The position numbers and the translations under genes are program-made. A stretch of DNA of 64,000 nt from the NCBI GenBank assembly GCA_039545335.1, contig BCIN01000005.1, forward strand, positions 496,001-560,000, given 5' to 3'. Positions 8,276-47,401 of the stretch are shown here, in pieces (position 1 is the stretch's first letter; every line of letters begins with the position of its first letter). The notes beneath the pieces are model-generated. The model was not told where the DNA came from and did not search any database. It saw nothing but the letters and a program-made list of their open reading frames with translations. The stretch is from Kondoa subrosea. Lineage: Eukaryota.

Positions 8276-10818
8276 CTAATCCTCCCTCCGCCGCTTCGCA
8301 TCATCACCTCCTAAATCTTCGTCTGCAGCTCGCTTCGTGATTGGCTTGAATCCCGCTGCTTTTCTAGGCACCATCGACGCTTGAGGTACATTGAGAGTAG
8401 GTGTAAGATTGATTTCAGGTGCTGGAGTACCGCTTTCTTTCGCTTTGCCTTTACCCTTGCCTTTCCTTTTACCAGCTGGCTGTTTCGAAGGATCGACAGA
8501 GACAGATGATTGAAAGTCTTCTATTTGAGGTGCAGTCCTACATCGAACACGATCAGCTCACTTCTGCATGCAGAGTATAGAAAAGAGACGCACATTTTGT
8601 TACCAACACTCAGAAGCATAGTAGCCGAACCCAATCGCTCTTGCCGAGCTTGGAAGGCAGCGTTGGTAGACAATGGAGTATCGCCTGAAGCCATAGCAGC
8701 AGCTTTCTTCTCGTCTTCATATTTCTTGAGACGCTTGACTTGCTTGTTTGTTCCACTACCTTTGCCATGAAATTCATGCGAAAGATATCTGTGAACACAA
8801 GCCTATATCAGCGAGAAATTTTGCAATCAGCAATGTGCACTTACTTCCAAGCTTCCTTCTTTGTCATCTCCCGACCAAACTCGTCAGTGTACTTGATATC
8901 GATATTGGGTTTATAATCTTTGAAGCGATCCAAATCTCGGGCAGCTTGTTCTCTATCTCTTTGCTTGTTCTCCAATTCGCGTTGATGTTGATCTTTAGAT
9001 GAGCCAGCAGCTTTTGAAGCTTGTCGACTCGCAGCAATTCGAGCTTCATCTTCTCTTCTTGCAGCTAACCAGCGTTGTTTCTTCTTGTACTCGTCCTCCG
9101 CTGCAATCTCTTCCGGTGTCATAGGTTTGACCAAACCTTGTTGCTTGAGCAAAGCCAAAGTAGCTCCCATTCCGCGAGAATGTAAATATTCACCACCTGT
9201 CCCTCCTAAAGCTCGATCAGTCTCTTCTTCTTCTTTCTTGATTCGCTCTTCTTCTCCAGCTAACAATCTTCTTTCCTCTTCTTCCTCATCCAAATCCATA
9301 CCGTTCGTTTCGCCCGCTTCAAGTTCAGCAACAGGTTCTTCCATTTTGACTTCCCTAACAGTTTCTTGCGCAGAAGAAGTAGAAGTAGCAGGAGGAGCGG
9401 GTGATGTTCGTTCTCTTTTAGGTAAAGCAGGTTGAAGAGTGATGCCTCGAACGAATTCAGAAGTATCGTCCAAGACCAATCCTTTGTCCTCTTCTAGCGT
9501 TACATCTTCCTCATCTTCTTCTTCCTTGACTTTGTCCATATCCACTTCTTCGTTTGTCGAAGGTAAAGCACGTTCTTTGAGTTCAGTTACAGCTTTCCTG
9601 TTCTTCGCTCGCCGTTGTCGCGCAAGAGAAGATTGCAGCTCTTCGTCATCCAGTAATGCTTGAGCATCAAGTTCTGCTTGAGATGTTCGATTTATAGTAG
9701 GTGCTGGAGAAGCTTCATCTGGTTTTCTTGTGGAAGTAGGTTTAGATTTCTTCTTCTTCTGCAATGGTATCACATGGTCAGTATACAGAGGGTATAGGAG
9801 AGATGAGGAGGGACGTACTTTGAGCTTCTTGAAGCCTGCATCACCTTCTTTCAGGTAATCACCTGAATCGAGATTCTTCTCGTAGTTCAAGTTCATGAGC
9901 GTCTTTTGCAGTTCTTTAGCTACTTCTTGTTTAGATTCAGAGGTCTTGATGACTGGTTTGGCAACGGCTTCAAAAGTATTTGCATCATCGAATTCAGTTT
10001 GATGAGAAGAAGACGCCGCGCCTAATCTGAATCCGGAAGAAGTCTGTTGAATAGAAGGATCATCTTTGATATCCACATCGTATTTCGATAAGATCCCAGC
10101 TTTCTTTCCGGTTGAGAATTCCTGATCATCCAAACCAGTATATTGATGAGCGTTTTTGCCTTTAGATTTGAGATCCAACCGTTCTTCCGTTCGCTTGTAA
10201 TCTGCCATATTGACGTTCTCCAATTCATCATCATCGTCATCCACACCCATTAACCTTGAATCCCTCAAAGTCAAGATACTGTCTTGACCTTCTTTGAAGT
10301 CATCTAGATCATGACCGACTTTGATTCCGCGTAGATCAGATTCATCATAACGAGCAGCTAATTCCGCATCCAAAGCTTCTTGTTCTTCTTGACGTTTCCT
10401 AGCCAATTCAGCAGCAACTTCTTTTGCTCTCTTTTTAGATTTCTTAACCCAAGCTTTAGCTGCATCTTCTTCCGTATTACCACTACCTTCACCTAAACTT
10501 TTGCCAGTCAATTTATTCTTGAGATCTCTTTTGGTTTTGGCTTTCTCCAATCGTTCATTCAAAGCGGTTGAAGTGCGTAAGGATTCCTCTGCATCCCTAA
10601 CAGCTCTAAAGTTCTCAACAGCGATCTCATCTTCTGTTTTGACTGGTTCTTGACCTGCTTGGGTTGGTGCAGAAGGATCGCCTAGAGGTTTCAATCCAAG
10701 CGAGAGTCGAACTTTACTATTTAAGGAGAACGCGAAGGGAATAAGCTGGGTCATAACAGTAAAATGGAGGTAGAGGGACTTACTTGGTCTCCTCCAGCGA
10801 GAGGGATTCGGCAGACAT
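8276..10818 (-). CDS. SNU66: U4/U6.U5 tri-snRNP protein Snu66/SART-1
   Basis: HIND-like motif SLSLEETN|KVRLSLGLKPL; IKVGHDLDDF, LTLRDS, YKPNIDIKYTDEFGREMTKKEAWK typical of SART-1. Confidence 0.92.
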
Positions 10819-11044: not shown

Positions 11045-12292
11045 ATGTCAAGTCCTCGAATAACTGGTTCGGCCTCTTCTTCAACCCCTTGCACATTCCC
11101 TCAGGTCTAACGCGTTCGTTATAGTCTGTGTAGTAGGCGAAGGAGGTGTTGGGTTAGTCACTTACTACAGCTCTGAAGAATGAGCTGAAGAACAATGGTT
11201 TAGCAAGTCGTGCTTGACCTTAGCTTTCCTCAAGAGAGATTTCTCAGAGGAATATGATCCTACGTACGTACCATCTCTATCCAAATGAGTTTAGTTTCTC
11301 ATCGTGGAAGAGTCGTTGTACAGTGTGGAAGATAGTTATACGTGCGCTGCAGATTGGCCTCCCTGAGTATCAAGCTCATTTGGCAACTTCATGCGTGTAC
11401 AGTGTCGAGATGAATGTTGATGGTCAGCCTGTCACAGTAGACGTGAGTATTTCTGCCTCTTTACCAATCCGTTACAGCTAATGATTTGTATAGATAGTAG
11501 ATACAGCAGGTCAAGGTTTGCGCTACTTCCTTTCAATTCCGGAGATTCTCCTTCTCAAAGTAATCTATAGAGGAATACCGCAATCTTTGGCAAGCAACAG
11601 CTCGAACAGCAGATGGCTTCATCTTTGTCTATGCTATAGATTCCCTAGAATCCTTTGCCGCTTTACCTGGATTTTTGAACATCGTTCGAGAAACAAAAGC
11701 TTCACACGACGAGGATCGACCTACTTCCCTTAATTCACCTGAAAATAATCCTTTTGTATTTGCTGTTCTGGGTAACAAGACTGATTTACCTCAAGAGAGA
11801 AGACAAGTACCGGCTCAGGATGGTCAACAGTATACGAAATCAGGTGGAGGTTTATTCTTGTTCGTCATCTTTCAACCCTGAAATATCTTACTGATTCAAT
11901 GGGATTTTAGCGAAACTTCTGCTAAAATGTCTTTAAACGTCGAAAGTTCTTTCACTTCTTTAATCCGTCATATCCTTCGTGCTCGAGCATTAGATAGCGC
12001 AGCAAGAAAACCAGGTCAATATCAAAGAACTTCTTTCAATAACCCAAACGTTGGGTATTTGGAAATGATGCAAGAAGCGAAAAGTAGGCAAAGCGTTACT
12101 TTGGATGAGAAAGCTCGAGTGAAAAGACCAAAGAATCGTACGTTCTTTCCTCTCTGGAGCAACTTTTTACTATTCGCTCATGCTTGTTTTTGTTGGTCAC
12201 TAGCGAACCTGAGCATGGACAGGAACAACACTAAGAGTTTTGGTGGATTGGCTGATGAGAAGAAGAGCGGAGGTTGTTGCGTCGTTTCTTAA
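11045..12292 (+). CDS. Ras-family small GTPase
   Basis: Spliced VVGEGGVG|KS, EEYDPT|VEDSY, DTAGQ|EEY, GNKTD, ETSAK; C-terminal GGCCVVS* (CaaX plus a palmitoylatable Cys). Confidence 0.88.
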
Positions 12293-16880: not shown

Positions 16881-17704
16881 CACAGCAAGGGGAACAAGCT
16901 CTCTTCTCGGCNAAGGGAAGCGCTGCTCTCTTCTCAGTAACCCTTCTGCTTGTTCTTTTCTAGCTTTGTTCCTTCTCGGACAGACGTCTGCATATGGTAA
17001 CAGAGATATAGCATAACCAAAAAGACGCAAGAGCAAAGCAGTCGTTCTATCAAATCCTACCATGACTGCTTATTCACGAGTAAACTGAGTGTGATGATAG
17101 CTGATCAGCTCACTGCGCGTATACCTGATGTGGAATCGAGTGGAAGTTGAAGACAGAAAGCCAGACATTGAAATGCCCCTTGACCTCGAACGAAGATTCA
17201 GCGTCGATATCTTGGCCACTGGTACATCACGTGCTATCTCTGGCTGTGCTGTGTATGCGCAATAAATGAAGACTGCAGACAGGTCGAATTCGCTGTCGTT
17301 GCAGGAGTCTATTGAACTTTCAGCTCCTGAAGAACATCGTTGGAACTCAGACTATGCGCAACGAAGATACAATGACCGTTGCTGTTGACTACTGCTGAGA
17401 ACTTGGGCTTTGCTTTTATTTCCCACCACTGCCTGCGAATTCTTGACTCTGACCAAATGATGCTTCTGATGCAATTCATATCAATGGCTAGCTCGATTAG
17501 ATGTATCCTTTTGAACCTCTCACCCTGAATCGCCGAGCATCTTTCGTTTCCCGAGCTGGTCTTGCATGACATTTTCTGAACGTTTCTCATCCATCAATCA
17601 ATACCTATCTCTAACTATCTATGTCGGGACTCATCTGTAATCGTAACATGACCCTGTCCACAACCCATTACGTGCAACACCCCCATGCAAAAAAGTAGCA
17701 AAAA

Positions 17705-17856
17705 CGACCACCCATAGGATTGAACTACTGGAAGGATGTCAGGTATGAAACCACTTTGTGTGCAGACAGGTAACTCACTGGACCTCCCGATTAACAGTCG
17801 GACGCTCTAACCAGCTCTGAAAGAGGATATGGGTTAGGGATGCGCTAGAAAGAAAA
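17705..17856 (-). pseudogene. 5'-truncated copy of the intron-split tRNA-Asn gene (exons 2-3 only)
   Basis: Identical to 20999-21150: exon 3 17705-17727, intron 17728-17778, exon 2 17779-17816. It breaks off inside intron 1 at 17856, so exon 1 and the GT donor are missing. Confidence 0.8.
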
Positions 17857-19592
17857 TTTCGATGCTTTGCTACTCGTTCTTCCTACCGTTACCAATAGCG
17901 GAGCAACTGGTCGGGATTTGCCTTCCGTTATTGCTATGTTGGTATGCGGTTTCGTGATTTTGGGTATCACGATTGTCTATGAAGGCTGGTTTGCGAAGGT
18001 GAGCGTTCATTACTAGTGTCTTTTGTCTTTCAAACTAACCCTTTATTGAAAGTTCCCTGCTGTTCCTGGACGATTCATGCGCAATCCTACTGTCTCGGCT
18101 GCTTGCACTATCGCGCTATTTGACTTCATTTCTTTCTATCTACAATTCACCTATCAATGCGAGCTAGAAATTGGTACTTTGTATCTCATGCTGACTCTTA
18201 TATAGATTCTTTCATCTACATTACTCGCTTCCCAGAATGGTCAATCAAAGACTTAGGCTATTTCGCAAACGTGAGTTGCGTGCTTCGAAGGAGAATCAAC
18301 GCTGATGATCCGATAGACGCAATCACTGGCCTTGACCTTCTTTGCAATCTTTGCTGGCGTTTATATTCTTATCTTCAAGCGATTAAAGGTAAGCTTCGAA
18401 GACCTGTGTTTCGCTCGGTACTCATTTTGATGTAGGTTCTACTCTTCGTCGGTCTGGCTATCCGTCTTCTTGGTGTTGGCTTGATGATACATGCTCGTGG
18501 TGCAAAGTGAGCTATACCTTATCAAGCTGTACACTGTTGATGGTCAACCGCAGCGGATCTACTGCTGAGTTGGTTATCGTACAAATCATTCAAGGCGCTG
18601 GAGGAGGCATCGCGGCTGGAGCAACTCAAACTGCTGCTCAAGCTGTTGTACCGCATCAAGATCTTTCTGCTATCACTGCAGTGTACTTGTTGTTTGCCGA
18701 AGTAGGGGGAGCTATCGGTACCGCTATTGCAGGAGCTATTTGGAGGAATAGTGAGTTCCTAAGATATACTCTGTCAATATCTGCTAATGTGAAGCTAGCT
18801 ATGCCTAATCAACTCGATCAACGTTTGTCTGGATTATTGGATCAAGCGACTATCGATTCCATCTTTGGCTCCATTACTACAGCAGCAGCATATCCTCGCG
18901 GTCAATCTATCTTTGAAGGCATTCGCGCTGCATACACCAGAGTCATGGAATTGATCCTCATTCCAGCAACGGTGCTCGCAGTCAGGACCCGGGACTAAGC
19001 GGTTTGAGGTTATTTTTTTTCTGGGCCACTTTTCGAGCGAAATTTTGGATTTCTTGTTACCGTTTGGGCCACTTTTGAGCCTCGTTTGGGTCAGGTTATT
19101 GCAGATTTGGGCCAGTTTTTGGATTGGAATTTCGGTCAAAGGGCAAGTTTATTGCCTTCAGCGCTACAATTTGTACCCTTCAAACTCCGTCACGTCTGAA
19201 CTCCCCAGCGAGTCATGAACGACTTGCGCTCGAGGGACAACGACGACAAGGAGGAACATTTTTTTAAGATTTTCGATAATTTTGGCCCGATTACGTAATT
19301 TTTGTCCGCCTACCTTGTTAGTACACCGGGCCACTTTTGCGAGCGATTTTTGAAAGGTTGTTACCCCTTTTGGGCCAGTTTTGAAAGGCTTTTGGCGCGG
19401 ATTTTGGGCCAGTTTTGGGTGCTGCTGGGAAACAACCTTGAACCGCTTAGTCCGGGGTCCTTCGCAGTCATTCCTCTTATTGCTGTCTTCTTCATCAAGA
19501 ACTTGCCTTTGGGCGACGTGCGCAACGTGGTGGAAGATGAAGACGTGGCTTCGCTGGACTCCAGGACGTCCGATAGGAAGGACAAGGATTAG
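17857..19592 (+). pseudogene. Diverged 3' fragment of the siderophore transporter, 5'-truncated and MITE-disrupted
   Basis: Homologous to ~15043-16294 with many substitutions; no 5' half; one donor changed gtgagt->gcgagc; 478-bp insertion in the last exon. Confidence 0.85.
18984..19461. mobile_element. Non-autonomous DNA transposon (MITE), 478 bp, ~32-bp imperfect TIRs, 8-bp TSD
   Basis: Left end AGGACCCGGGACTAAGCGGTTTGAGGTTATTT; reverse complement of right end AGGACCCCGGACTAAGCGGTTCAAGGTTGTTT. TSD TCGCAGTC at 18976-18983 and 19462-19469; the empty site is present once in the intact gene near 16165. Confidence 0.9.
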
Positions 19593-19661
19593 AGATGTGT
19601 GGTAATGGGATAATCGAACAGAGGAAATGGATCTCATAGGAGCTGAAACTCCTAACGAGCC

Positions 19662-21150
19662 AAGTACAGCATTGCAGTACAATTTGTGGTGCAGAGGCTT
19701 GCTACTTTGTACAGCTGGGTGCGAAAGCAATGTAAACATGCTCGTTCACAACTTAAAGACGAGCAGCTCTCTTGTCTAGAATCATCCACTGCCCTGTCTT
19801 ATAGCAGCTCTCCTATGGAAACAGCTATGAAATTCCTGGCAGCAATCCCATCGCGATCCTCTTCCTCCCTGGACACATGGAGTAAGTGCAATTGTTTGCA
19901 TTGCTGAAACTCCTTGGCTAATCCTGTCGAGCTCTCAACAGGTCACTCGATCGATCAGATGGGAGAGCCAGGACAGACGTGAAGGGGCCCGTCGTGAGCG
20001 GAAGCAACCACATCCGTTCTGCATGGTGCTCTCCCTTCTGAGATAGATCTGGGAACAAAGACTGGCTAATCCAGGTCTCCCGAGATCTCCATATGGACGA
20101 CATGGACAACTGGACGACATGAACGATTGGACAACTATGGACGACTGGACAACTGGACGACTGGACGACTACGACACAGCAAGGGGAACAAGCTCTCTTC
20201 TCGGCNAAGGGAAGCGCTGCTCTCTTCTCAGTAACCCTTCTGCTTGTTCTTTTCTAGCTTTGTTCCTTCTCGGACAGACGTCTGCATATGGTAACAGAGA
20301 TATAGCATAACCAAAAAGACGCAAGAGCAAAGCAGTCGTTCTATCAAATCCTACCATGACTGCTTATTCACGAGTAAACTGAGTGTGATGATAGCTGATC
20401 AGCTCACTGCGCGTATACCTGATGTGGAATCGAGTGGAAGTTGAAGACAGAAAGCCAGACATTGAAATGCCCCTTGACCTCGAACGAAGATTCAGCGTCG
20501 ATATCTTGGCCACTGGTACATCACGTGCTATCTCTGGCTGTGCTGTGTATGCGCAATAAATGAAGACTGCAGACAGGTCGAATTCGCTGTCGTTGCAGGA
20601 GTCTATTGAACTTTCAGCTCCTGAAGAACATCGTTGGAACTCAGACTATGCGCAACGAAGATACAATGACCGTTGCTGTTGACTACTGCTGAGAACTTGG
20701 GCTTTGCTTTTATTTCCCACCACTGCCTGCGAATTCTTGACTCTGACCAAATGATGCTTCTGATGCAATTCATATCAATGGCTAGCTCGATTAGATGTAT
20801 CCTTTTGAACCTCTCACCCTGAATCGCCGAGCATCTTTCGTTTCCCGAGCTGGTCTTGCATGACATTTTCTGAACGTTTCTCATCCATCAATCAATACCT
20901 ATCTCTAACTATCTATGTCGGGACTCATCTGTAATCGTAACATGACCCTGTCCACAACCCATTACGTGCAACACCCCCATGCAAAAAAGTAGCAAAAACG
21001 ACCACCCATAGGATTGAACTACTGGAAGGATGTCAGGTATGAAACCACTTTGTGTGCAGACAGGTAACTCACTGGACCTCCCGATTAACAGTCGGACGCT
21101 CTAACCAGCTCTGAAAGAGGATATGGGTTAGGGATGCGCTAGAAAGAAAA
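19662..21150. repeat. Copy B of the ~1.49-kb identical segment
   Basis: Matches 16368-17856 at offset 3294. Confidence 0.9.
20983..20998 (-). terminator. Pol III-type oligo(T) terminator (T5-GCTAC-T6) directly after the tRNA 3' end
   Basis: Minus strand reads ...GGTGGTCG TTTTT GCTAC TTTTTT. Confidence 0.7.
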
Positions 21151-21178
21151 CAGTTGGTAACCCACGAGCTAGGCAGTC
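20999..21178 (-). tRNA. tRNA-Asn(GTT) gene in three exons separated by two spliceosomal-type GT-AG introns
   Basis: Exons 21178-21166, 21110-21073 and 21021-20999 join to GACTGCCTAGCTCAGCTGGTTAGAGCGTCCGACTGTTAATCGGGAGGTCCATAGTTCAATCCTATGGGTGGTCG (74 nt). Acceptor GACTGCC/GGTGGTC, D stem GCTC/GAGC, anticodon stem TCCGA/TCGGG with loop CT-GTT-AA, T stem CATAG/CTATG with loop TTCAATC, discriminator G. Confidence 0.9.
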
Positions 21179-22212
21179 NATGAAATAAAGCGAAATTTCA
21201 AAGACAAACATATATCTGCAATAAGTTTTCTGTAAGACATTTTTTGCCCTACTCAGCCGCGCGGATGTTATATGTGTAACATGACCCACGAATGAGTGCG
21301 ACGATAGGGCGGTGTGTTGGGCGCGGAGCGCGTACAGTAGTTGTCGACGGTAGCCTACTGCATAGCCAATCGAGAATCTCGTTTCATCATTGGATCATCG
21401 TCGGGTATTTGTACTTAGATTTAGAGCGTAGTCACTGCTGGATGCCTTAGTACTCCATGAGACCTGGCAAAGATAATCCGAATCTCGTTTCTCATTCGAA
21501 GGTCGAGCAATAACCTTGGCTGCTGACATCGATTCTCTTGCCTGAAGTCTCTGCTCTATCTTCAGTCTTTTGTGCTAGAAGGGCTCGTCGAAGAAGCTGT
21601 CCTGCATCTTCGATGAATGTTGGCTATTGCCCGAACTCGGACTGAGTTTCTTCTCTGATGTACTCCGGGCAACTGAGCGCAATCTCCTGTCATTATGCTA
21701 GTGACTAGTCTACCTGTTGACAAGAGTTCTACCTTGTCATGCAACGCAAACGTGCCAGTGAAGGTCAAACTCTTCCAGTGTTTCGGCAAATGGACTGCCT
21801 TCTTACTTGCATGCTCAATCCTGATTTTATATCTCATGACATTGCGACGCCTTATATACCGCAACAGATTTCGAACCGCTCAACGAACGGGAACTTTGGT
21901 GATGGCAGTGCTGCTGGCATATGTATGTCGAGGTCGCGCTTGACCTTTACTCGGGCAACACGGCAAAGCGAGGGCGCTGTTCGAGGCACTGCAACGCTGT
22001 AACGCTTTAACAAGATCCCCAAATACTTCCGAAAGTCAACAAGAACGCGTTCCAAATTTAATGAAGACCTATATCTATATGTAGACTCGAAGAACAACAA
22101 TACATCCAGTTTTAGACTCGAACCTCTTCTTCTTTTCTTCTTCATTCCCTCTCTTTTCCCAACTCACTTGTCTCACACTCACCACACTCTTTTATTCTAC
22201 CACAGTATAACA

Positions 22213-46248: not shown

Positions 46249-47401
46249 ATGAGTTTCTACGATCTGAATATACCCTGGCCCGTCAATGTCCCTGCAGCAA
46301 GTACCCTGACAGCAAAACAGAAGGGCAAGCAGCCTGCTGCGAATGCAAATACGGCTTCGAATGATTCATCCACTGGACTCTCTGCTTTACCCATCTCAGC
46401 TCAGGCAGATCTCAGATCCAATGTAGAGATGCTCATTCACTTAGGCTACTCAATTTGTGCCTTCAACGTCTTCTTACCTCTCGACACTTATTCCACGCAA
46501 AATGTCAAGCAGCTCAATCCATGCTATAATTTCTTACCTCCCTTTCCTGATCTCGATCCTAGGCAAGCGAGTACGAGTAAAGATCAAGTGAAAAGTCAGG
46601 GCAAGATCATGCAATTGAGTCGCTTGACTATCGAACTGGATGAGAAATGTGTAGGCGGGAAAGGCAACGGTTCATGCTTTGTCAGTCTCCACCATAATGT
46701 CCCTCAGTCTAGTGAATGACTGATATCATGGTGATCATTGACAGACAACAGCCAATGCATCACATTTAGGAACATACGACCTCATTTCAGTCTTACCAAA
46801 AGATACAACTTCTTTCGCTCAAGCTTGTCAATCCATTTCTTCACCAGCCAACAACGCAGTAGATATAATCACTCTAGATCTAGCAACTTCGGCTAAACTG
46901 CCTTTTATGCTCAAACGTTCCGTCGTTCTCTCAGCTTTACAACAAGGTGTACAATTCGAAATCGTTTATGGTATAACATTACGAACAGGATCGTCGGACG
47001 TACCAAAAGAAAGCAGAAGAAACGTTTTTGCCGGAGCGAGGGAATTGATCAGAATGACCAATGGCAAGAATATTATTTTGAGTTCGAGCGTTAAGAAATG
47101 TATGGAATTGAGGAGTCCAGGGGATGTAAGTAATTTGGCTCATTTAATGGGTATGACGGAAGATCAAGCGAAAGAAACCGTTTCTGGCAATCCGAGGAAA
47201 GCGGTCATGAGAGGTTATAGTGCTAGGAATGCGTACAGGGGAGTTCTCAAAGGTCCAGAGGTCGTTATTACGAGAAAGGAGAAAAAGAAGGGGAAGAAGA
47301 GAGCTGCAATAGAGGGCGAAGAGGTACAGGGCAGTCCAGTGAAGCGAGCTAGGGTAGAAGTAGTAGAGGAAAGTTCGCAGGCGGAGGAGGTTGTAGCATA
47401 G
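46249..47401 (+). CDS. RPP1: RNase P/MRP subunit p30
   Basis: MSFYDLNIPWP...LIHLGYSICAFN...LSRLTIEL...YDLISVLP...DIITLDL...GVQFEIVYG...TNGKNIILSS...LRSPGDVSNL. Confidence 0.9.

Follow-up and report, generated by a model that had tools for sequence, protein, structure and literature searches.

Introduction

In the textbook view, the introns of transfer RNA (tRNA) genes and spliceosomal introns are separate systems. The locus described here, at which the two appear to meet, is a tRNA-Asn(GTT) gene on the minus strand of a 64,000-nucleotide stretch of the Kondoa subrosea assembly GCA_039545335.1 (contig BCIN01000005.1, positions 496,001 to 560,000 of the forward strand). This whole stretch is referred to below as the window, and positions are counted from its first letter. 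A first-pass annotation, made from the sequence, had proposed that the gene is interrupted by two introns of the messenger RNA (mRNA) type, and the proposal was followed up by computational analysis.

The tRNA introns taken out by endonuclease lie at position 37/38 or, in archaea, red algae and nucleomorphs, at sites marked by a bulge-helix-bulge (BHB) motif. They are like the introns of the present locus in that they interrupt tRNA genes, sometimes in the D and T arms, and in that removal precedes folding, as it would here. They differ in being excised by a protein endonuclease and joined by a ligase, with recognition of a BHB motif or measurement by a ruler, and in having neither GT-AG ends nor a branch site, whereas spliceosomal signals are found at this locus. 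In the available text of two recent reviews, tRNA splicing is described as the work of an endonuclease plus a ligase only (PMC10275265, PMC12530127).

Among the systems in which spliceosomal introns interrupt a gene for a small RNA, the U6 small nuclear RNA (snRNA) gene of fungi invites comparison. Here intron 1 splits the A box and the B box is intact in exon 3, whereas the intron of Schizosaccharomyces pombe U6 carries the B box. The hosts also differ, the present one being a tRNA, which does not touch the spliceosome's active site. As a tRNA is not near that active site, the explanation given for U6, reverse splicing into a neighbouring RNA, does not carry over directly. The likeness lies in a short, structured RNA of RNA polymerase III (Pol III) with short introns that have canonical splice and branch sites, up to four of them in one fungal U6 gene (PMC5855946), Pol III transcription and splicing being presumed for the locus in the window. 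The available text of that source also gives removal of the S. pombe U6 intron by the spliceosome and the presence of spliceosomal introns in U6, U2, U5 and U1 snRNA genes and in ribosomal RNA (rRNA) genes, and titles in its reference list name U1, U2 and U5 for Rhodotorula hasegawae, a basidiomycete-type yeast (PMC5855946).

The introns in the rRNA genes of lichen-forming fungi are comparable in being spliceosome-type introns of a gene that is not transcribed by RNA polymerase II (Pol II), but they lie in RNA polymerase I transcripts of ascomycetes and no tRNA is involved. In yeasts, Pol II makes U3 small nucleolar RNA (snoRNA). Spliceosomal introns have been reported from the nuclear rRNA genes of lichen-forming ascomycetes (Bhattacharya et al., 2000, via PMC5855946; 10.1101/2021.05.01.442275, both in the text available). 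The introns of fungal U3 are likewise GT-AG introns in a small structured non-coding RNA; they are of normal type, with about 15 nt between branch site and acceptor, and are broadly distributed in Basidiomycota (PMC5832005). In the available sections of the same study, only two small structured RNAs, U3 and U6, are given as hitherto known for frequent interruption by an intron, and tRNA is not listed there (PMC5832005).

The first-pass annotation knew of no report of mRNA-type introns in tRNA genes. The literature searched, in which most subscription journals are not covered, agrees within that coverage: no paper was found that describes a tRNA gene with a spliceosomal intron. The mRNA-type introns of small non-coding RNA genes, known in U6 and U3, are probably met here in a tRNA gene, for the first time as far as could be found. 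It is likely, at a probability of roughly 0.65, that the locus holds a functioning nuclear gene for tRNA-Asn(GUU), belonging to a basidiomycete-like fungus with a small genome, that the gene's D arm and T arm each hold an ordinary U2-type GT-AG intron, and that its Pol III precursor is spliced twice by the spliceosome before folding and end-processing.

A tRNA-Asn(GTT) cloverleaf recovered by removal of two introns

Joining the three exons by their coordinates (Table 1) gave a 74-mer that ARAGORN called as tRNA-Asn(GTT), with a full cloverleaf and all four arms. By the same program no tRNA was called in the raw locus, in either of the two forms with a single intron removed, or in the whole 64-kb window as it stands. 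Neither did the window have any match to Rfam at the gathering threshold, and positions 20950-21230 searched alone (281 bases) had none at E≤10, tRNA included. The first-pass annotation had read three minus-strand exons as a complete 74-nt tRNA-Asn(GTT), had suggested as a check that a call should come only after splicing, and had expected standard scanners to miss the raw gene. ARAGORN agrees on the first two points, and on the third both ARAGORN and Rfam/Infernal return nothing. The coordinates, strings and exon lengths given there all match the sequence, and the D stem, A box and T stem that exact excision at GT and AG was said to restore are confirmed in the joined 74-mer.

In the spliced form the invariant and semi-invariant bases U8, A14, G18 G19, U33, G53 T54 T55 C56, A58, C61 and G73 are present, and the anticodon GTT and discriminator G73 fit Asn only once both introns are out. 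In the ARAGORN cloverleaf exon 1 pairs with exon 3 in the acceptor stem and with exon 2 in the D stem. The minimum free energy of the 74-mer has a z-score of -0.7 against mononucleotide shuffles, a value that carries no information either way. Intron 1 had been placed between nucleotides 13 and 14, which holds in linear and in standard tRNA numbering alike. The placement of intron 2 between nucleotides 50 and 51 stands in standard numbering but not in linear numbering, in which it is 51/52; the two are equal because the D loop has 9 nt.

Recovery of the tRNA was compared with chance in scans of the window and of shuffled sequence. A strict candidate intron, on either strand, had to measure 35-130 nt and to combine a GTRNGY donor and a YAG acceptor with a YTRAY motif placed 6-48 nt before the end, and constructs from which such introns had been removed singly or in nearby pairs were passed to ARAGORN. 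The real window yielded 378 candidate introns and 524 constructs, with exactly one tRNA, which is this locus; 30 dinucleotide shuffles of the window yielded none in 10,800 constructs. A relaxed scan, in which any single GT..AG of 20-160 nt was removed, also gave no tRNA (71,066 constructs). The tRNA recovered by intron removal is not a product of chance.

A profile hidden Markov model (HMM) of tRNA-Asn was built from 103 distinct metagenomic sequences; these had been picked by the exon-2 core pattern, and the profile is therefore biased towards exon 2. The raw locus scored 36.6 bits, exon 2 being the only part of it that was matched. With one intron out the score was 47.8 or 48.1 bits, and with both out 59.4 bits. 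As about 11 bits are gained per intron removed, each removal adds to the likeness to a tRNA independently.

Table 1. Features of the split tRNA-Asn(GTT) locus and its truncated copy (positions in the window)
Feature	Position	Strand	Details
Exon 1, 13 nt	21166..21178	-	tRNA positions 1-13: 5' acceptor strand, U8, A9, 5' D-stem strand
Intron 1, 55 nt	21111..21165	-	Between tRNA positions 13 and 14; GTGGGT ... CCCTAAC ... TTTCAG
Exon 2, 38 nt	21073..21110	-	D loop, 3' D stem, anticodon arm (GTT), variable loop, T-stem 49-50
Intron 2, 51 nt	21022..21072	-	Between tRNA positions 50 and 51 (linear 51/52); GTGAGT ... CCTGAC ... TTCCAG
Exon 3, 23 nt	20999..21021	-	T-stem 51-53, T loop, B box GTTCAATCC, 3' T stem, 3' acceptor strand, discriminator G73
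Pol III terminator-like T runs	20983..20998	-	T5 directly after G73, five other bases, T6
ATATATG	21209..21215	-	-37 to -31 from mature 5' end
Truncated second tRNA copy	17705..17856	-	Last 40 nt of intron 1, exon 2, intron 2, exon 3; 100% identical to complete gene

Splice signals and comparison with other introns

Both donors fit a GTRNGT-like U2-type 5' splice site. The branch motif of intron 1 is CTAAC, the A of which lies 18 nt before the intron's 3' end, and CCCTAAC stops 16 nt before that end; in intron 2 the motif is CTGAC, with the A 12 nt from the 3' end, and CCTGAC stops 10 nt before it. Each intron has a pyrimidine tract and the acceptor CAG.

For comparison with the mRNA introns of the window, GT..AG candidates bridging two open reading frames (ORFs) were collected. 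There were 732 of these, and 38 passed a strict signal filter. Among the 38, which include some alternatives for one junction and some entries in the duplicated segment described below, 18 have lengths of 40-59 nt, donors of the GTRAGT type and a CTRAY motif that precedes YAG by 10-20 nt; as the filter itself demanded splice signals, only the lengths count as independent evidence. In the SART-1 gene, alignments to all five of the homologues tested (of 120) break at 8844 and resume at 8790 or 8784, which supports a 56-nt GTAAGT...CAG intron predicted at 8844/8790. The inserts of the tRNA gene, at 55 and 51 nt, lie within the size range of the mRNA introns of the window. The signals, the lengths in the window and the SART-1 intron thus agree with the first-pass description of a U2-type donor, CTRAC branch point, pyrimidine tract, CAG acceptor and mRNA-intron size.

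It was also seen that the first 8 nt of intron 1, GTGGGTTA (21158-21165), are complementary on the minus strand to the branch region TAACCCAT (21123-21130), with one G-U pair, and that this pairing is present in the predicted minimum-energy fold of the precursor. It could hide the donor and the branch site or bring them side by side, or could be due to chance.

Introns away from 37/38 occur in nuclear tRNA genes of red algae and nucleomorphs, and the two inserts might accordingly be of the endonuclease type, with GT..AG ends by coincidence. The eukaryotic tRNA endonuclease, however, measures to the 37/38 site, and the introns here are at 13/14 and 50/51; the ectopic introns of archaea and red algae require a BHB motif. 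A search in which the bulges could be 2-4 nt long, the central helix 3-5 bp, and the cuts anywhere in the bulges gave no BHB solution, strict or relaxed, at either intron. BHB introns are usually shorter and without signals of the GT-AG kind, whereas a full donor, branch motif, pyrimidine tract and CAG are present here at the local mRNA intron size. With no BHB solution at either junction, excision by an endonuclease is very unlikely.

Transcription signals

The B box, GTTCAATCC, lies whole within exon 3; in the DNA, intron 1 cuts the A box in two. Runs of T terminate Pol III, and two such runs follow the gene (Table 1); within the introns the longest is a T4, in intron 1, and intron 2 has no run of four or more. 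The promoters of tRNA genes of the S. pombe type have an upstream TATA, and the ATATATG upstream of exon 1 is a possible TATA-like element for TFIIIB. Taken together, the B box, the T5 and T6 and the TATA-like element would be compatible with a Pol III gene built as in S. pombe. The DNA across the boundary of exon 1 and intron 1 (21160-21171, minus strand) reads TAGCTC and then GTGGG, which we take to resemble the A-box consensus with one base missing; on a speculative view, the start of intron 1 may partly replace the split A box at the DNA level.

The same exons and introns, and a functional tRNA, would also result if a longer, capped Pol II transcript were spliced co-transcriptionally and then cut by RNase P and RNase Z. 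Recruitment of the spliceosome is normally coupled to Pol II, and for Pol II a split A box would not matter. Upstream of the gene there is about 1 kb (21180-22200) without a recognisable gene, which might accommodate such a transcript, but none of the four flanking minus-strand ORFs that were searched contains a Pfam family, so that nothing points to a protein-coding host gene. The intact B box also speaks for Pol III, as do the T5 and T6 directly after the discriminator, an arrangement like that of Pol III tRNA genes; a paralogous locus, described below, ends in T5 too. That Pol III transcripts can be spliced is shown by S. pombe U6, in the text available (PMC5855946). Synthesis by Pol II is for these reasons regarded as rather improbable.

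Tandem duplication and support from sample contigs

The segment 15052-17856 is duplicated in tandem at 17864-21150 (about 2.8-3.3 kb) and contains the 3' two-thirds of an MFS transporter gene, a spacer and part of the tRNA gene. The duplicates are 90.1% identical in their first 1.1 kb but 99.1% identical in the last 1.7 kb, and this uneven divergence might reflect gene conversion; the second duplicate carries about 470 extra bases at 18985-19455. At the internal duplication junction lies a truncated second copy of the tRNA gene (Table 1), the shared flank of which continues down to 17606. It has no exon 1, because the left duplicate ends inside intron 1, and it is probably dead. This copy is too recent to give information on conservation.

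Contigs from two runs of one sample, which are possibly the source data of the assembly itself, were compared with the locus; by their totals, the full assembly would amount to about 19 Mb. They bridge every exon-intron junction with no differing letters (20700-21104, 21078-21150 and 21121-21700), but do not count as independent support. Contig depth over the duplicated part is 287 against 143.6 for single-copy sequence, which is 2x, and falls to 1x beyond it; the duplication is therefore real in that sample.

There are three single Ns in the region, at 16912, 20206 and 21179. The first two, at equivalent places in the duplicates and 3,294 bases apart, look like ambiguous consensus from mixed reads of both. 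The third had been noted as adjacent to exon 1; it is at position -1, outside the mature tRNA.

Such a setting, with duplicated blocks that are 99-100% identical and with Ns of which two fall at equivalent places, is one in which mis-joined repeats could have produced a chimera. It is highly improbable that the split gene is an assembly artefact of this kind, given that the contigs of both runs cross all of its junctions, that the depths are those a real duplication predicts, and that the junction of the truncated copy is separately present in the contigs, even if these are possibly the assembly's own data.

A paralogous tRNA-Asn locus and the origin of the introns

In the same contigs, a 33-nt core of exon 2 (21075-21107) forms a node of its own with a depth of 463, against 143.6 for single-copy sequence. 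This corresponds to about three copies, namely the two in the window and one further locus, and two different continuations leave the node. On the 3' side of the further locus, the variable loop runs straight into GTTAG, the T loop TTCAAAC, CTAAC, the acceptor strand TTGAATC, G73 and T5. The T arm is continuous there, which means that intron 2 is absent, exactly at the boundaries proposed for it in the window gene. The T stem of the further locus is GTTAG/CTAAC, compared with CATAG/CTATG in the window gene, a difference of two compensatory pair changes (49:65 and 50:64). By its sequence, the third locus is assigned as a diverged tRNA-Asn paralogue.

The 5' side of the paralogue, which is carried by a contig of 1,171 nt and of which 30 letters are visible, is neither D stem nor acceptor strand. 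It ends with CTGAC, a pyrimidine stretch and AG. ATCCTCT is common to it and the tail of intron 1, and the 10-mer CTGACATCCT is found both in it and in the tail of intron 2; within the window, CTGACATCCT occurs only in intron 2 and its duplicate. As this side is not tRNA and is intron-like, the D loop of the paralogue, too, appears to be interrupted. No continuation with an intact D arm joins the exon-2 core in the contigs of either run.

Both introns of the window gene start with the 10-mer GTGRGTTACC (21156-21165 and 21063-21072, minus strand). Counting the duplicate, there are three matches to it in the window, where 0.09 would be expected, and it occurs nowhere else in the window. The shared start is a possible hint that both introns have one origin. 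Their overall similarity is not significant, with 94 of 2,000 shuffles reaching the alignment score, and no further copy of either intron was found within the 64-kb window beyond the tandem duplicate. The contig graph is unbranched inside both introns, and near-identical copies are therefore absent elsewhere in that sample.

These observations bear on a further explanation, that the locus is a dead or dying tRNA-Asn gene into which two intron-like inserts, for example introner-like mobile introns, have landed while other Asn genes supply the cell. The shared GTGRGTTACC start and the CTGACATCCT shared with the flank of the paralogue hint at a common source of inserts, but this is offset by the lack of significant similarity between the introns as wholes, by the absence of another copy of either in the window and by the absence of contig branching inside them. 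The segment that holds the gene was duplicated recently and has a truncated copy of it close by, and the A box is split, yet the exons are undecayed, with every stem pair and invariant base intact. None of the three copies of the Asn core in the sample has an intact D arm. The T stems of the paralogues differ by compensatory changes, a sign of selection for pairing. On balance it is unlikely, though by no means far-fetched, that the gene is dead or dying.

Searches for related loci

A scan of metagenomes for Asn-GTT genes in which position 14 is immediately preceded by an acceptor found no locus. When no intron was required, the Asn core was found in at least 119 loci. Among the matches listed, 113 are ordinary uninterrupted tRNA-Asn genes, many of them in multi-tRNA clusters of bacterial or phage appearance, and six are without a call (three cut by contig ends, two with imperfect arms and one with an insertion that follows the anticodon loop and is not of GT-AG type); no GT-AG insert in the D arm or T arm is present among them. 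One metagenome locus (L109) is tRNA-Asn-like; its anticodon loop is followed at once by an AT-rich stretch of about 30 inserted nucleotides without GT-AG ends, and this is probably an ordinary tRNA intron at the canonical position in another organism.

In a collection of prokaryote genomes there was no match to a junction of the intron-2 type and none to a GT..AG intron in the D arm with this D arm. These zeros are expected, because only contamination could have matched.

Interpretation

On the reading that the locus is a working gene, Pol III would transcribe some 190-200 nt, directed by the intact B box, the split A box and perhaps the TATA-like element, and transcription would stop at the T5 and T6 runs. 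The precursor would be unable to fold as a tRNA because two of its arms are interrupted. Both short introns would be recognised by the spliceosome through intron definition and removed as lariats, and only after splicing would the cloverleaf form, to be followed by RNase P cleavage, 3' trimming, CCA addition and modification. We infer transcription, splicing, the order of the steps and the function of the product, all of them from DNA sequence.

Several points weigh against a working gene that is spliced in this way. The split A box could weaken Pol III transcription, and the T4 of intron 1 could terminate Pol III in some organisms. With only 13 nt and a leader, exon 1 makes a short first exon, and the spliced cloverleaf has two G-U pairs in its acceptor stem and an A-U-rich T stem. 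The gene stands where a recent tandem duplication ends, and dead copies arise in such places. As the two runs may be the source of the assembly, the support from their contigs is not independent. In the paralogue there is no AG at the point homologous to 13/14, with an AAG two bases further on, and this locus, to judge from the 30 letters of its 5' side, may be truncated or decayed and not spliced. Neither the metagenome scans nor those of the prokaryote collection gave a related interrupted locus. Lastly, there may be intact tRNA-Asn(GTT) genes whose core differs and from which the pool is supplied.

A stronger form of the proposal is that every copy with this tRNA-Asn(GUU) core is interrupted by mRNA-type introns, that the spliceosome is an obligatory step of tRNA maturation in this fungal lineage, and that asparagine decoding thus depends on the splicing of a Pol III transcript. 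This is put forward as a tentative possibility, which is doubtful at present. If it were true, there would be a class of spliceosomal tRNA introns that is invisible to scanners and that may occur in other tRNAs and in other eukaryotes.

Should the gene be working and spliced as proposed, a further way of interrupting a tRNA gene would be added to those described, and very short Pol III transcripts with tiny exons would be spliceable outside the case of U6. The supply of the tRNA for one amino acid would be tied to spliceosome activity, and counts of tRNA genes by tRNAscan-SE, ARAGORN or Rfam could be incomplete in intron-rich fungi. The finding would also bear on intron gain.

Host and neighbouring genes

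The window is a gene-dense eukaryotic stretch with genes for SART-1/Snu66, dynamitin, myotubularin, a CAP59-type mannosyltransferase, the p30 subunit of RNase P, ABC and MFS transporters and others. Proteins of basidiomycetes are the closest to the SART-1 ORF, with those of Microbotryomycetes at the top at 39% identity, and the database has no close relative.

The sole Rfam match in the window at E≤10 was to SNORD125, at 11793-11876 on the minus strand, with 22.3 bits where the gathering score is 56 (E = 10), and was taken as chance. The ORF with the RNase P subunit p30 domain (46742-47398, plus strand; E = 1.4e-34) is about 25 kb from the split tRNA gene, and this nearness is probably a coincidence.

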